DNA from: an uncultured Candidatus Saccharibacteria bacterium | GTDB taxonomy: Bacteria; Patescibacteriota; Minisyncoccia; UBA6257; Colwellbacteraceae | Direction: 5' to 3' | Assembly (NCBI GenBank): GCA_964360065.1 | Contig: CAYHTW010000002.1 | Location: forward strand, 2,251-66,250 | DNA length: 64,000 nt | Shown here: in pieces, positions 2,371 to 53,962 of the stretch | Layout: every line of letters begins with the position of its first letter | How positions within the stretch are numbered: the stretch's first letter is position 1 | The notes under the pieces: model-generated | Database searches by the model: none | Told to the model about the DNA's origin: nothing | The model's input: the letters and a program-made list of their open reading frames with translations, nothing else | Program-made: the position numbers and the translations under genes

Positions 2371-3117
2371 CTAAGAGAGGCTCCAACGGGAGAAAATGAG
2401 GATGATGAGAGATAGAATTATAGCGGTGGCTATCTCCCAGCGTAAAGTTTTATCGGCAATAGTGTCCAACTTATAAGCCATAAGGATGTCATTAACTATA
2501 AAAACACCAGTAGTGACTATAATTGAAGCTGAAGAGGAAGAAAGGGGTAGCAACTCCAAGCCCCAGGCCAGCTCCACCACAATAAGAGAGGAAACCACTG
2601 AAACTAGTATTTGTCCGTTACGCGACCCATCTGATAAAAGAATATAGAGTTCCTTGAAGAGGAATAAAGAGAAGAAAAACAGCCCCACTTGTGAAGCTAG
2701 AGAAGCACTAGAGAAGTAGAGATAAACTCCAATAAAGAAAATCATGGAGTAAAGAAGCTGAGTGGTTTCTTTTCTCCTTATAAAAAGCAGGTCTTTAACC
2801 CCCACTAGCAGATACATCAGCACTCCTAAAGAGAAAGCAAAAAGCGCCTCCAAAGACCCGAGATCAGGGAAAAGGAAACAGTAAGCGAGAAGTGTAAAAG
2901 AAACTATGAGAAATTTGAAGCTCTGCGATATAGGACGAAAATAGGCGTAAGCAAAGAATAGTACTACTGCTAGTCCTGCCCAAAAACCTCCAGCAGATCT
3001 AAGCCAGTAAGCGGAGATAGCGAAGAGAAAAGACTCAAGCGCTAATCTTAACGTCTGATTCCTCGAAACTGATGCGAATACGACTGCCATCTTTAATATT
3101 TCCTCTGATAATACCAT
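2371..3117 (-). CDS. Polytopic membrane protein of unknown function (start uncertain; the annotated start overlaps clpB 3' end by 83 nt)
   Basis: Multiple hydrophobic helices and no recognisable motif. An alternative non-ATG start is possible. Confidence 0.4.
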   Translation of the reverse strand: MVLSEEILKMAVVFASVSRNQTLRLALESFLFAISAYWLRSAGGFWAGLAVVLFFAYAYFRPISQSFKFLIVSFTLLAYCFLFPDLGSLEALFAFSLGVLMYLLVGVKDLLFIRRKETTQLLYSMIFFIGVYLYFSSASLASQVGLFFFSLFLFKELYILLSDGSRNGQILVSVVSSLIVVELAWGLELLPLSSSSASIIVTTGVFIVNDILMAYKLDTIADKTLRWEIATAIILSLIILIFSRWSLS

Positions 3118-5718: not shown

Positions 5719-7026
5719 TTAGATCCTTTCTTCAAGGGTCACCTTGAAATTGAGTGTCTCTGGCCCCCGGAGTATCTTCACATTAATAACGTCCCCAATG
5801 TTGTAGTTTTGGATAATATCGCCCAACTGATGATCTGAATTAATTTTCGTGTCACCAAATTGAGTTATAATATCTCCGCTTTGAATGCCCGCCTTAGAGG
5901 CCGGAGAGTTTGGTACGATAGCTGTATTCGCACCATCGGAACTAATTAATGCGCCTTCAGCAACCGCAAGTTTTTTGGACTTAGCGAGATCTGCGTCAAT
6001 AGTGATATATCTCACCCCAAGATATGGAACTTTAATGGAGCCTGTGGAGCTGACAGACTTAATATCTTTCTTGGCCCGATTGATAGGAATTGCAAAGCCG
6101 ATACTTTGAGCACCTGAAGCAATCGCGGTATTAATCCCTATAACCTCACCTTTGAGGTTTAGTAGTGGTCCCCCGGAATTGCCCGGATTAATGGCCGCGT
6201 CAGTTTGAATCACTCCCTGTAGGGTCTCTGTGCCAAATTGACTGCCAGAGGCGGTGATGGTTCTTGATAGACCTGAAATAACGCCGACGGAAACCGTGTT
6301 GCTAAATTCTCCCAAAGAATAGCCGATAGCTATAGCCGTTTGACCAAGTTTAATAGAATCCGAGTTTCCTATCTTAGCGGCGGTTAATCCGATACCATCA
6401 ATTTTAATAATAGCCAAGTCCTGGAAGGGGTCTCTAGCTAAAACTTTAGCTGGGTATTTTTTGCCATTATAGGTAATCACTGTATATTCGGCGGCGGTGT
6501 CTGCTACCACGTGTTTATTGGTAAGAACCAAGCCGTCGCTAGAAACTATAAAGCCGCTACCGCCGCCAATCTTTTGAAGTTGAGTGCCTTTCTGACAAGG
6601 CTGATAGTATTGAATGCCTCCTCCACCAAAAAGATTCTGTAAATCTGGAGAAAGATTAGAGAATGGGTCGTAGGGACACTGCTCAATAATGGGTATATTT
6701 TTAGAGATAATTATAGAAACAACGCTTTTAGAAGAATCATCAACTGCTTTTATTATCGCCTGTTCATAATCAACCGTGGGTGCATAAATAGTAACTGGGG
6801 TGTTTGCAGGAACAGGGGAAGGGTCAGGGGCTGGTTTAGGTGTGGGGGCTGGAGTAGGGACGGGGACAGGGCTGGCGTTTGGTTTAGGAGTAAGAAAGCT
6901 GGGGATGTATTTATTAAATAAATCTTGGATAAAGTTAGCTGAAGCTTGGGGGGAATTCAAAACTGACCCCAAAACAGCACCGAGGATAAAAATCGCGAAA
7001 ATAAAACCTGAAATTCTTTTATTCAT
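5719..7026 (-). CDS. HtrA/DegP-family trypsin-like serine protease with C-terminal PDZ domain and a Pro/Thr-rich N-terminal linker
   Basis: Catalytic triad motifs TNKHVV, DLAIIKI and GNSGGPL; a PDZ-like C-terminus; a signal-anchor. Confidence 0.85.
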   Translation of the reverse strand: MNKRISGFIFAIFILGAVLGSVLNSPQASANFIQDLFNKYIPSFLTPKPNASPVPVPTPAPTPKPAPDPSPVPANTPVTIYAPTVDYEQAIIKAVDDSSKSVVSIIISKNIPIIEQCPYDPFSNLSPDLQNLFGGGGIQYYQPCQKGTQLQKIGGGSGFIVSSDGLVLTNKHVVADTAAEYTVITYNGKKYPAKVLARDPFQDLAIIKIDGIGLTAAKIGNSDSIKLGQTAIAIGYSLGEFSNTVSVGVISGLSRTITASGSQFGTETLQGVIQTDAAINPGNSGGPLLNLKGEVIGINTAIASGAQSIGFAIPINRAKKDIKSVSSTGSIKVPYLGVRYITIDADLAKSKKLAVAEGALISSDGANTAIVPNSPASKAGIQSGDIITQFGDTKINSDHQLGDIIQNYNIGDVINVKILRGPETLNFKVTLEERI

Positions 7027-48098: not shown

Positions 48099-48174
48099 GC
48101 GCCCATAGCTCAGCTGGTTAGAGCACAGTCCTTATAAGGCTGGGGTCCTTGGTTCGAGTCCAAGTGGGCGCACC
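48099..48174 (+). tRNA. tRNA-Ile with anticodon TAT (UAU), CCA encoded
   Basis: Anticodon stem-loop cagtc-ctTATaa-ggctg, T-loop ggttcgagtcc. Confidence 0.7.
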
Positions 48175-48180
48175 AGATAA

Positions 48181-50927: not shown

Positions 50928-51167
50928 ATGTTTACGGTTTATGTTTTAAAAGATGGTGTTGGTAAATTTTACAAAGGGTTGACCAATAACATAGAGAGAA
51001 GATTGAAAGAGCATAAAAACGGTCATACAATTACTACATCAAGAATGCCAAATCTTGAAGTGGTGTACACAGAGACTTTTGAAGACTTCAAAACTGCCAG
51101 AAAACGAGAGCTATATCTAAAGTCAGCGGCTGGCAGAAGATTTCTTAAAAGGGTATTGCGCGCTTAG
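50928..51167 (+). CDS. GIY-YIG nuclease, YhbQ/UPF0213-like (79 aa); the ORF ends inside the tRNA-Val gene
   Basis: VYVLKDGVGKFYKGLTNNIERRLKEH GIY-YIG motif; last codons VLRA* are encoded by the tRNA acceptor stem. Confidence 0.75.
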   Translation: MFTVYVLKDGVGKFYKGLTNNIERRLKEHKNGHTITTSRMPNLEVVYTETFEDFKTARKRELYLKSAAGRRFLKRVLRA

Positions 51168-51232
51168 CTCAGTGGTAGAGCGACTCGTTTACACCGAGTA
51201 GGCCGGGGGTTCAATCCCCTCAGCGCGCACCA
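51158..51232 (+). tRNA. tRNA-Val (anticodon TAC), CCA encoded
   Basis: Anticodon loop ttTACac, T-loop ggttcaatccc. Confidence 0.85.
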
Positions 51233-52163: not shown

Positions 52164-52751
52164 ATGTTCGAACAGAGACACGGATACACACCAACACAGA
52201 GGATAGGTCAGAATTTCCACCTAACTATAAAAATGATAAGAACTTTTTCGGAAAATATTGTTTTCTTTGATACCGAGTTTTCGGATCTGGATTCGGAGAC
52301 CGGCAAGTTGTTATCCATAGGTATGGTCAGACCGGACGGTGAGGAACTCTATTTAGAAATAGAGTACGAAGTGGAACCCAACGACTGGGTTAAAGAAAAT
52401 GTAGTCCCCTTCCTTAAGGGCAAGAAAGTAAGCGAAGAAGAAGCCAGAGACAAGATAAGAAGTTTCCTTGGAGACACCTCTCCATACCTGCTTTCTTACG
52501 TTAACCAGTTTGATGCGATTTATTGGTACAAACTATTTGGAGCCAGAACCCATCCAGCCGCTAAGATTCCATTAGATTTTTCTTCAATGCTATTTACCTT
52601 GGGGTTCAATCCAGGAAGCTTGTCTAACGACGATTTTCTTGATGACTTAGGCATAGACGCCAGCAAATACCAAAAACACAACGCCTTGGATGACGCGAAG
52701 CTTCTTAAAGAAGTTTATGTAAAATTTTTTAAGAGATACGGTAACTATTGA
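52164..52751 (+). CDS. DEDDh 3'-5' exonuclease (DnaQ-like); the true start may be M at 52233
   Basis: Exo I FFDTEFSDLD, Exo II YVNQFDAIYW, Exo III HNALDDAKLL. Confidence 0.65.
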   Translation: MFEQRHGYTPTQRIGQNFHLTIKMIRTFSENIVFFDTEFSDLDSETGKLLSIGMVRPDGEELYLEIEYEVEPNDWVKENVVPFLKGKKVSEEEARDKIRSFLGDTSPYLLSYVNQFDAIYWYKLFGARTHPAAKIPLDFSSMLFTLGFNPGSLSNDDFLDDLGIDASKYQKHNALDDAKLLKEVYVKFFKRYGNY

Positions 52752-52998
52752 GCGCCCTTGACCTGCTGAGGGTAAGCTTGGAACCGTTTTCGTATTAACA
52801 CATATGGAGCTCCCAACTCATTCGGCAAAATCAATCGGCAATTTTTTAGAATTGCCGATTGAGGTTTTAAGCGGTTTCCTGGTAAGCCCATGAATACTAC
52901 ATCTGTGCATAAAGTGTGAAACATTTGACAAAAAGCGTAAAACATCGTGAACATCAAAACGCCAGATAACCGCATGAATACTACACTTCGTAAAAGTG

Positions 52999-53016
52999 AA
53001 GTTTCACGTGAAACTT
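52999..53016. promoter_or_regulatory. 18 bp perfect palindrome aagtttcacgtgaaactt, just 3' of the LAGLIDADG gene
   Basis: Perfect dyad centred on CACGTG; one of three related sites within 600 bp. Confidence 0.6.
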
Positions 53017-53034
53017 TTAGATTAAAATGGCTAA

Positions 53035-53472
53035 CTAAAATTTTGGATTCTTATCGTAATATCCCGATTTATAAAGGCGCCATATAACCTTATAATTTTT
53101 AGGCACGTTCGTGTCTCTTCCAATATTTTCTAACCATTCCTCAAACTGTATGCCCTTATGTCCATAAAGCCTTTTATAGAAGAACGGTACAATTGTATTT
53201 TTAAGCGTTCCAAGGTCCCTAACCATCAACCTAACTATTGCGCCTCTATTATGACCGTCTTTCCTATACGGGCCGAGCCTATACATTCTAGTCTTTATAT
53301 TAAGATGATTTCTTACGGCTTCTACGAGATCACCATCTCTCTCATTCATGGTGATAGTGAACATAGGAAGTCTTGGTTTCATTGATTGGCCATTCTTCAA
53401 TGGTACATTACAAAAACTAAAACATCCCTCTCCTTCTATAAGTCCCCTAATGTAATCGTTAGTTAAAATCAT
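53035..53472 (-). CDS. Free-standing single-motif LAGLIDADG homing-endonuclease-like protein (145 aa)
   Basis: YIRGLIEGEGCFSF is a LAGLIDADG-type motif; its size matches homodimeric single-motif enzymes. Confidence 0.7.
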   Translation of the reverse strand: MILTNDYIRGLIEGEGCFSFCNVPLKNGQSMKPRLPMFTITMNERDGDLVEAVRNHLNIKTRMYRLGPYRKDGHNRGAIVRLMVRDLGTLKNTIVPFFYKRLYGHKGIQFEEWLENIGRDTNVPKNYKVIWRLYKSGYYDKNPKF

Positions 53473-53494
53473 AGCTTATCACTGTTCCTTATTT

Positions 53495-53518
53495 GCAAAG
53501 TTTCACGTGAAACTTTGC
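53495..53518. promoter_or_regulatory. 24 bp perfect palindrome gcaaagtttcacgtgaaactttgc, 23 bp upstream of the LAGLIDADG start codon
   Basis: Perfect dyad in the divergent intergenic region shared with yraN. Confidence 0.65.
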
Positions 53519-53567
53519 AAGATAGGCTCTGGATGTATGCCGGGTAAACACTTATAATCTTATTATA

Positions 53568-53582
53568 AAGTTTTTCGTGAAA
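53568..53582. promoter_or_regulatory. Degenerate third copy agtttttcgtgaaac, between a TATAAT-like box and the yraN start codon
   Basis: Right half-site CGTGAAAC conserved; left half altered. Confidence 0.45.
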
Positions 53583-53584
53583 CA

Positions 53585-53962
53585 ATGCCTTCAAAATCGG
53601 AAACTGGTAAATTAGGAGAAGATCTAGCCTCTCGGTATCTCAAGGGTAAGGGATATAAGATTATTGAAAGAAACTACCGGAAGCCCTGGGGAGAGCTGGA
53701 TATGGTGGCTTATTCTGAAACTGGGGTGTTGGTTTTTGTAGAGGTTAAAACCGTTACGTCGCATAATGTGGATAAGATGTTGATAACTGCCGAGGATCAG
53801 ATGACTCGTCAGAAGATAGAAAAGCTAAAAAGAGTATCTGCCATGTATGCCCAAAGCTTCCCCGAAAAAATAAACGAAGCTCTTGGATGGAGGATAGATG
53901 TTTTAGCCTTGACAATAAACGGAAAAGATTGTGTTGTGAAACATTACGAAAATATAAGTTAA
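53585..53962 (+). CDS. yraN: YraN/UPF0102 family endonuclease
   Basis: GELDMVAYSETGVLVFVEVKT pattern. Confidence 0.75.
   Translation: MPSKSETGKLGEDLASRYLKGKGYKIIERNYRKPWGELDMVAYSETGVLVFVEVKTVTSHNVDKMLITAEDQMTRQKIEKLKRVSAMYAQSFPEKINEALGWRIDVLALTINGKDCVVKHYENIS

Follow-up and report, generated by a model that had tools for sequence, protein, structure and literature searches.

Does a nuclease gene that lies among perfect palindromes own them? The question is raised by a 64-kb stretch of DNA from an uncultured Candidatus Saccharibacteria bacterium (contig CAYHTW010000002.1; the whole stretch is hereafter called the window), in which a free-standing gene for a 145-aa LAGLIDADG endonuclease is surrounded by palindromic sites and stands divergent from yraN, a nuclease gene (Table 1). 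The initial annotation regarded the palindromes as the LAGLIDADG protein's own cognate or operator sites. We found the same arrays upstream of yraN in relatives without the LAGLIDADG gene; therefore, the sites belong to the yraN upstream region and not to the LAGLIDADG protein. That is, the gene is a lodger in a parS-type array and not the array's master. Overall, we favor the explanation, at a probability of roughly 0.6, that the region upstream of yraN carries a parS-type array in which the LAGLIDADG gene is an optional, free-standing homing endonuclease gene.

Site arrays upstream of yraN

Metagenome contigs were searched with a YraN alignment, and the 80 yraN loci obtained were checked for the LAGLIDADG gene. 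It was matched in 20 of the 80 and gave no match in the other 60, and the sites persist where it is missing. Of the loci analyzed, L068, L070 and L092 came from Hainich groundwater samples. Many gene-free yraN loci hold larger arrays upstream, with up to eight canonical parS sites, or ten sites in ~650 bp. Arrays of 3-10 sites stand upstream of yraN in gene-free loci L063, L066, L081, L082, L090, L105, L115 and L117; L090 has ten sites, L117 eight canonical TGTTTCACGTGAAACA sites, L082 seven, L115 six and L105 four. The locus whose YraN is closest to that of the window (L063, 66% identity) shares the window's exonuclease ... yraN-rpsT gene order; it carries four sites and lacks the LAGLIDADG gene. 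Gene-free loci commonly have a site whose first base lies 16-45 bp before the yraN ATG (L063, L071, L099, L106, L115, L117 and L124). The palindrome is thus a common motif unrelated to the LAGLIDADG gene, and the annotation's remark on the lack of a described system is moot, since protein and palindrome do not form one.

In LAGLIDADG-bearing loci, the sites remain concentrated around the gene. The density of TGTTT-N6-AAACA was 0.82/kb in the 200 bp upstream of the gene and 0.59/kb in the 450 bp downstream, versus 0.004/kb in the rest of these loci. The sites there are fewer and more degenerate than in gene-free loci: GTTT-N6-AAAC sites numbered 0.52 per occupied locus versus 1.87 per empty locus (p = 0.001), and perfect palindromes 0.16 versus 0.97 (p = 0.005), both statistics ignoring phylogeny. 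Any perfect GTTT-N6-AAAC palindrome was present in the flanks of 6/61 LAGLIDADG-bearing loci; bracketing by perfect palindromes is not general to the LAGLIDADG family.

Within the window, the sequence features that had been described were all borne out. The palindrome upstream of the gene was correctly placed as 24 bp at 53495-53518 and in fact reaches 28 bp, and the 18-bp palindrome past the stop codon is as described. The third, degenerate copy exists, one base above the coordinates first given for it. The exact 14-mer GTTTCACGTGAAAC occurs at only two places in the window, both of them palindromes, and its sole match with two mismatches is the third copy. The heptamer GTTTCAC occurs 16 times in the window versus 6.9 expected, and 7/16 fall within 52916-53942. 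Together with the palindrome listing, the 14-mer scan agrees with the earlier statement that the three sites are related, and chance is ruled out as their source. Site 1 ends 18 bp past the LAGLIDADG stop codon; site 2 starts 20 bp upstream of its start codon, within the 112-bp spacer that the gene shares with the divergent yraN in the window.

By their sequence, the palindromes are parS-type sites, which the ParB family would bind. The general ParB-site consensus is TGTTNCACGTGAAACA, AGTTTCACGTGAAACT is listed as parS of Streptococcus pneumoniae, and the half-parS sites GTTTCAC and GTTCCAC are bound by ParB in P. aeruginosa (PMC7022226). The window holds two copies of the 16-mer AGTTTCACGTGAAACT, which agrees with the S. 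pneumoniae parS at 16/16 positions and with TGTTNCACGTGAAACA at 14/16. Like chromosomal parS, the two perfect sites of the window contain the S. pneumoniae 16-mer and are accompanied by GTTTCAC half-sites, the relatives carry canonical TGTTTCACGTGAAACA, and the variant centers resemble other ParB-family sites such as gTTTATGCGCATAAAc of Burkholderia chromosome II. In contrast to chromosomal parS, the sites here form tight arrays (up to 10 in about 650 bp), are tied to the region upstream of yraN and not to parAB or oriC genes, are accompanied by two further conserved repeat classes, and come with no ParB found in 943 kb. Copies are usually identical within one genome, whereas the central six bases differ between genomes; taken by itself, this pattern would suit a private site of the LAGLIDADG protein as well as a site for another lineage-specific binder.

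Many of the parS copies in L090 (about 560-1215) and L117 (about 2500-3000) are embedded in perfect palindromes extended to 22-36 bp, and the outer arms vary among the copies (e.g., TTGCAAATTGTTTCACGTGAAACAATTTGCAA). The 28-bp site of the window (TTGCAAAG...CTTTGCAA) is an extended palindrome of the same kind. ParB requires only 16 bp of its site.

The sites are accompanied by other repeats, likewise with or without the gene. Runs of half-boxes equivalent to that of the window occur in L001, L004, L006 and L063. A repeat of ~30 nt, here called motif M, stands 1-3 times beside the array in roughly two-fifths of related loci, including gene-free ones; it occurs 2-3 times in the window (52861-52987) and in L023, L024, L030, L044, L051, L070, L081 and L115. 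The last copy often has a partial inverted partner, in the window at about 52861-52875; the pair is hairpin-capable and shows compensatory differences between genomes. The two direct repeats catgaatactaca that had been reported in the window were confirmed and are part of a 24-nt repeat of 83% identity in the window's repeat listing; TTGCCGAAT-type repeats of the window were found in gene-free loci too. A second class, the 'T' repeats ATCGGCAA / ATCCGGCAA / ATCCTGCAA, is found in 3-5 copies at the corresponding place of L001, L004, L063, L067, L071, L090 and L117, whether or not the LAGLIDADG gene is there. These short repeats are lineage-specific and look like iterons or phased A-tracts. They close the module in the window, in L063 (~2200-2300), in L071 (~2480-2570) and in L081 (~580-650); they often come with a CAATTG-centered palindrome, and other lineages have GGAAAAAC / GGTTTTTCA instead.

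The LAGLIDADG protein and its slot

The 145-aa open reading frame (ORF) with a single LAGLIDADG motif, YIRGLIEGEGCFSF, is present as annotated. Pfam LAGLIDADG_1 matched residues 9-115 at 37.4 bits against a cutoff of 23.1, which settled the profile check proposed with the annotation in favor of a family member. A search of 5.8 billion proteins returned 75 relatives of 128-194 aa, nearly all with LAGLIDADG_1, and those with names are from Parcubacteria/Paceibacteria groups. The family profile matched structures of the I-OnuI family (I-LtrWI, I-PanMI and I-OnuI; E = 3e-23 to 1e-14) and aligned to each of the two domains in the I-OnuI/I-LtrI/I-PanMI structures; therefore, the 145-aa protein equals one domain of a two-domain enzyme. 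An AlphaFold2 model (predicted local distance difference test score, pLDDT, 95.2) gave the order alpha-beta-beta-alpha-beta-beta-alpha, with helices at 5-15, 44-56 and 87-98 and strands at 16-22, 34-43, 63-66 and 79-84. The top Foldseek matches in the PDB were all LAGLIDADG enzymes (template modeling score, TM, about 0.62-0.68), led by I-PanMI, I-OnuI and I-TnaI, the last of which is a homodimeric enzyme of 147 aa.

The acidic residue E15, which closes the motif, is a glutamate in 72 of the 76 family members and an aspartate in 2, and its counterparts in both I-LtrWI domains are the GE(G/A) glutamates; K106 is invariant (76/76). Both residues agree with the I-OnuI/I-LtrI family. The ratio of nonsynonymous to synonymous divergence (dN/dS) between pairs of LAGLIDADG genes was 0.03-0.09. 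Given the retained catalytic residues and this ratio, the protein is a functional single-domain LAGLIDADG enzyme that is probably capable of catalysis. The beta-sheet face that alternates with the conserved core positions, and that presumably contacts DNA, varies within the family. Single-domain LAGLIDADG enzymes act as homodimers that cut a specific site of 18-22 bp with 4-nt 3' overhangs, and a homodimer would fit a 22-bp palindrome. By its single-domain size, the 145-aa protein would likewise form a homodimer, and it probably cleaves DNA. A defense system was considered and rejected: in the PADLOC scan, the protein received generic 'homing endonuclease' matches only, and YraN received none.

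The gene occupies one place. A scan of GTDB species genomes gave 56 LAGLIDADG loci from Colwell-, Harrison-, Jorgensen-, Wolfe- and Liptonbacteria and relatives, and the ORFs of 54 loci were clustered; at least 50 species-level genomes, spread over many Paceibacteria groups, carry the gene. YraN neighbors it in 49/54 loci at a median mid-to-mid offset of 482 bp, and the two are divergent in 46 of these 49. No other neighboring family exceeds 18/54 loci (comM is downstream of the module in 11/54); those recognized by eye were NusA, ComM, FtsH, HolA, RpsT, FtsK and RecA. In the first six homologous loci (54-72% protein identity), the gene is divergent from yraN across 111-125 bp and is followed by ~300 bp of non-coding DNA rich in GTTTCAC-type boxes, and the far flank differs. 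In L046 (about 6440-6830), L054 and L056, yraN lies directly downstream in the same direction and the repeat module upstream; therefore, the link between LAGLIDADG gene and yraN survives rearrangement. The slot that the LAGLIDADG gene optionally fills is fixed, about 110 bp upstream of yraN. In two Harrisonbacteria contigs that approach the length of a genome, L011 (608,392 bp) and L022 (601,890 bp), the locus stands nearly at the midpoint, at about 52% and 49% of the length.

The YraN of the window matched Pfam UPF0102 (75.6 bits vs a cutoff of 23.6), and the NCBIfam models matched below their curated cutoffs (best NF009154, 85.5 bits vs 109). Its PD-(D/E)xK residues D39, E53 and K55 are invariant in 17 relatives. 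YraN has been reported to act as a nuclease that, jointly with the ComM helicase, resolves the D-loop of transformation (bioRxiv 10.1101/2024.02.06.579203).

The gene also bears marks of mobility. Its presence is patchy relative to YraN similarity, pairwise identities of the LAGLIDADG and YraN proteins correlate weakly (r = 0.37), and truncated remnants lie in the slot of L059 (C-terminal 69 residues), L061 (N-terminal 62) and L064 (a C-terminal fragment). In the pair L031 and L035, the LAGLIDADG proteins are 91% identical and synonymous divergence (pS) is 0.47, whereas YraN, ComM and a third neighbor are 57-71% identical with saturated pS (0.76-0.87). The DNA of this pair is about 74-90% identical from 5' yraN to ~110 bp past the LAGLIDADG stop codon. 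Downstream, identity collapses abruptly at a ATGTTTGTC box; on the upstream side, it fades within yraN, a stretch whose similarity could be due to conservation of the protein. The pattern clearly has the look of a cassette replaced by a foreign copy at the same site, i.e., of horizontal transfer. The pairs L054/L056 and L045/L052 look vertically inherited. Taken as a whole, the evidence fits a site-specific homing endonuclease gene with long vertical phases.

In the explanation we favor, the yraN upstream region of this Paceibacteria-type genome of the Candidate Phyla Radiation is a conserved non-coding module of TGTTT-N6-AAACA palindromes, half-sites and two further repeat classes, in which the palindromes form, by sequence, a centromere-like array of ParB-family sites that exists independently of the LAGLIDADG gene. 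The gene is an optional insertion in one fixed slot between two sites of the array, usually divergent from yraN. Its product would be a homodimeric, catalytically competent enzyme that cuts a sequence of roughly 20 bp in or beside unoccupied arrays, and the gene would be copied into the break from an occupied allele along with short flanks. Between homing events it would be inherited vertically and would sometimes decay. Homing is the transfer mechanism that we infer, and the location of the target is put forward in the same sense.

In L063, the slot between two parS-type sites (2490-2915) holds 426 nt with two long near-perfect hairpins (minimum free energy -178 kcal/mol, z = -11.6) and no Rfam match. 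The element may be an insertion resembling a miniature inverted-repeat transposable element; the array would then be an insertion hotspot.

Several results weigh against the favored explanation. Motif scans of 943 kb in 143 records, the window included, revealed no parB, parA or dnaA motif in the window or within 3-6 kb of an array, and the ParB box II motif was missing from the window and from the 943 kb as a whole; therefore, ParB binding is a prediction from sequence. Likewise, we found no literature on ParB or parS in these bacteria. The centers of the sites vary among genomes (CACGTG, CGCGCG, AGCGCT, ATCGAT and others) more widely than those of chromosomal parS usually do. Site counts of occupied loci were compared with those of empty ones without regard to phylogeny. 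The flanks of the closest occupied and empty pairs fail to align at the nucleotide level because these pairs share only 66-71% YraN identity. Among the viral contigs of IMG/VR there was one weak partial match and no relative able to serve as a vector; a phage origin, which we also considered, was rejected on this result. Finally, L054/L056 shows dS of 2.2 and dN/dS of 0.03 though seemingly vertical; purifying selection of this strength exceeds what a simple course of invasion, decay and loss predicts, and leaves room for a possible host function.

Other readings of the locus

The last point leads to the possibility that the LAGLIDADG nuclease was recruited to a host role tied to YraN, in the handling of transformation or recombination intermediates, or to the array, and is kept by selection on the host. 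In its favor are the low dN/dS even at saturated dS, the spread of the gene over so many species-level genomes, a link to yraN that outlasts rearrangement (L046, L054/L056), and the role of YraN as a transformation nuclease. However, the gene is missing from most array-carrying yraN loci, the closest relative of the window included, truncated copies exist, at least one horizontal replacement has occurred, and site-specific insertion explains the link to yraN equally well. We consider a host role unlikely, though worth keeping in view.

A variant close to the favored explanation holds that the target of the enzyme is the parS-type palindrome itself, so that the enzyme would be a selfish nuclease homing on a centromere array, whose sites it erodes or diversifies. 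The gene is always flanked by array sites, sites are fewer and less palindromic in occupied loci, and the high-identity tract of L031/L035 has a site-like box at its downstream end; a homodimer would also find an ideal target in a 16-bp palindrome that is conserved across bacteria. Nevertheless, the window keeps two perfect sites beside an apparently functional gene, the difference in site counts ignores phylogeny, and the variable residues that presumably contact DNA do not suggest one conserved target. A target of this kind is rather doubtful.

Could the non-coding module instead be the chromosomal replication origin, with the GTTTCAC-type boxes as variant DnaA boxes? Several repeat classes are packed into about 300 bp, perfect TTATCCACA boxes show, over the loci, an enrichment of about nine-fold close to the gene, and 18/27 loci show an origin-type change of skew. 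On the other hand, no dnaA or dnaN neighbors any locus and the motif scans found neither DnaA nor DnaN motifs in the window or anywhere in the 943 kb, the skew and strand difference across 27 loci, taken as a measure of origin proximity, was not significant (p = 0.10), and the sign in the window is opposite, with no clear turn of GC skew there. Moreover, the genes on both sides of the window locus are mostly on the minus strand, the region of the window holds only a single DnaA box, with one mismatch, and parS is the better explanation for complete 16-bp sites that match it exactly. An origin is improbable here.

The initial annotation offered two readings: a selfish nuclease element, which is reasonable, and a domesticated LAGLIDADG DNA-binding protein that uses the palindromes as operators for itself and yraN, which did not hold up. 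In favor of the latter, the sites lie in the 112-bp divergent spacer and adjoin both start codons; several loci have a site directly at the LAGLIDADG ATG, yraN is a conserved partner of the gene, and a homodimer would suit a 22-bp palindrome. A TATAAT-like box had been noted ahead of the third site; tataat is read at 53553-53558, but the promoter scan called no promoter there. The arrays of gene-free loci, including a site at the yraN ATG, largely refute operators of this kind. Gene-bearing loci have fewer sites and not more, the protein keeps the catalytic residues that known domesticated LAGLIDADG regulators have lost, and the closest relative lacks the gene, of which others have truncated copies. 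A regulatory role for the protein is therefore very improbable.

Least probable of all, and hardly credible, is a reading of the palindromes as terminators or attenuators formed by RNA hairpins, or as terminal inverted repeats of a transposon that carries the gene: although a site stands about 20 bp past the stop codon in many loci and the flanking sites of L001 are exact 21-nt inverted copies of each other, scans for terminators and promoters found nothing above shuffle expectation at the palindromes and called no terminator at the sites, arrays of 8-10 copies exist with no gene between them, no transposase is present, L004 has no full palindrome, and the transposon reading fails because site orientation varies between loci (direct in L010, inverted in L001). 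A structured RNA or intron around the gene was rejected as well, as no Rfam family matches the flanks: only tRNAs reached gathering scores, matches at E up to 10 were at chance level, and empty loci gave the same result.

Setting of the gene and its meaning

The features of the locus are listed in Table 1.

Table 1. Genes, sites and repeats of the locus, with positions in the window
Feature	Position	Strand	Basis or remark
LAGLIDADG endonuclease gene, 145 aa	53035-53472	-	ORF list, Pfam; free-standing, single domain
yraN (UPF0102), 125 aa, PD-(D/E)xK nuclease	53585-53962	+	Pfam UPF0102; site array tied to yraN
parS-type site 1, 18-bp perfect palindrome	52999-53016	.	16-mer AGTTTCACGTGAAACT at 53000-53015
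parS-type site 2, 28-bp perfect palindrome	53493-53520	.	16-mer AGTTTCACGTGAAACT at 53499-53514
Degenerate parS-type site 3, AGTTTTTCGTGAAACA	53569-53584	.	abuts yraN ATG (53585)
parS half-site cluster: GTGAAAC 52916-52922, then GTAAAAC / GTGAAC variants	52916-52954	.	
Motif M copy 1	52955-52987	-	contains second catgaatactaca (52973-52985)
Motif M copy 2, ~30 nt, consensus about ATGTAGGTTTCATGCGNTTATCGGGTTTT	52871-52903	-	contains first catgaatactaca (52889-52901)
'T' repeats ATTCGGCAA / AATCGGCAA / TTGCCGATT	52815-52863	.	far end of conserved non-coding module

The convergent neighbor at 52164-52751 encodes a DEDDh/RNase T-like 3'-5' exonuclease (Pfam 24 bits; PADLOC DEDDh 32.6 bits). Its position is kept in L063 (1011-1532), and in the window only the repeat module separates it from the LAGLIDADG gene. 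Farther away, in the region 50928-51232, a 79-aa ORF with a GIY-YIG domain (Pfam 49 bits) runs into the start of tRNA-Val(TAC) (51158-51232) and ends there. A tRNA-Ile with anticodon TAT lies at 48099-48175; most bacteria use a CAT anticodon modified to lysidine instead.

Known systems resemble the LAGLIDADG gene in part. It shares with the homodimeric enzymes I-CreI, I-TnaI and I-ShaI one LAGLIDADG_1 domain of ~145 aa, the fold, the conserved lysine and the catalytic acid that closes the motif, and an occurrence in genomes of the Candidate Phyla Radiation (CPR). The single-domain homodimeric LAGLIDADG enzymes already known in CPR bacteria sit in rRNA-gene insertions, and I-ShaI has been characterized (PMC11270868); the gene described here is instead free-standing and intergenic, outside any group I intron or rRNA-gene insertion. 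The seg and mob genes of phage T4, known for 'intronless homing', are likewise intergenic, fixed in position and present in some genomes only, and one species pair here shows a high-identity tract centered on the gene. However, T4 uses GIY-YIG or HNH enzymes, whereas the present gene lies in a cellular chromosome and has no phage relatives found in IMG/VR. WhiA also brings a LAGLIDADG fold to bacterial chromosomes. It has two degenerate LAGLIDADG domains and a helix-turn-helix domain and lacks catalytic residues, whereas the protein studied here has one domain, no extra domain and its catalytic residues. The gene is a known kind of element, a homing endonuclease gene, in a new setting.

For the biology of these bacteria, the palindrome is by sequence the standard bacterial partition site and not the private operator of a nuclease, which deflates the original claim. 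A large group of CPR bacteria concentrates its parS-type sites in a tight array at the yraN promoter region, which offers a handle on segregation in tiny genomes, and an array bound to yraN possibly ties segregation to genes of DNA uptake. The LAGLIDADG family lands in one conserved slot of the array, away from the rRNA genes that were the known location of such genes in these bacteria, and puts roughly 75 natural variants of a 145-aa enzyme on offer. Tentatively, Paceibacteria may keep a plasmid-like parS-type array at yraN, and the LAGLIDADG family may have specialized in homing there, possibly by cutting the palindromes; we consider this full picture speculative. If it were true, carriers would end with fewer and degenerate sites, and a selfish nuclease would be parasitizing the chromosome's own centromere.

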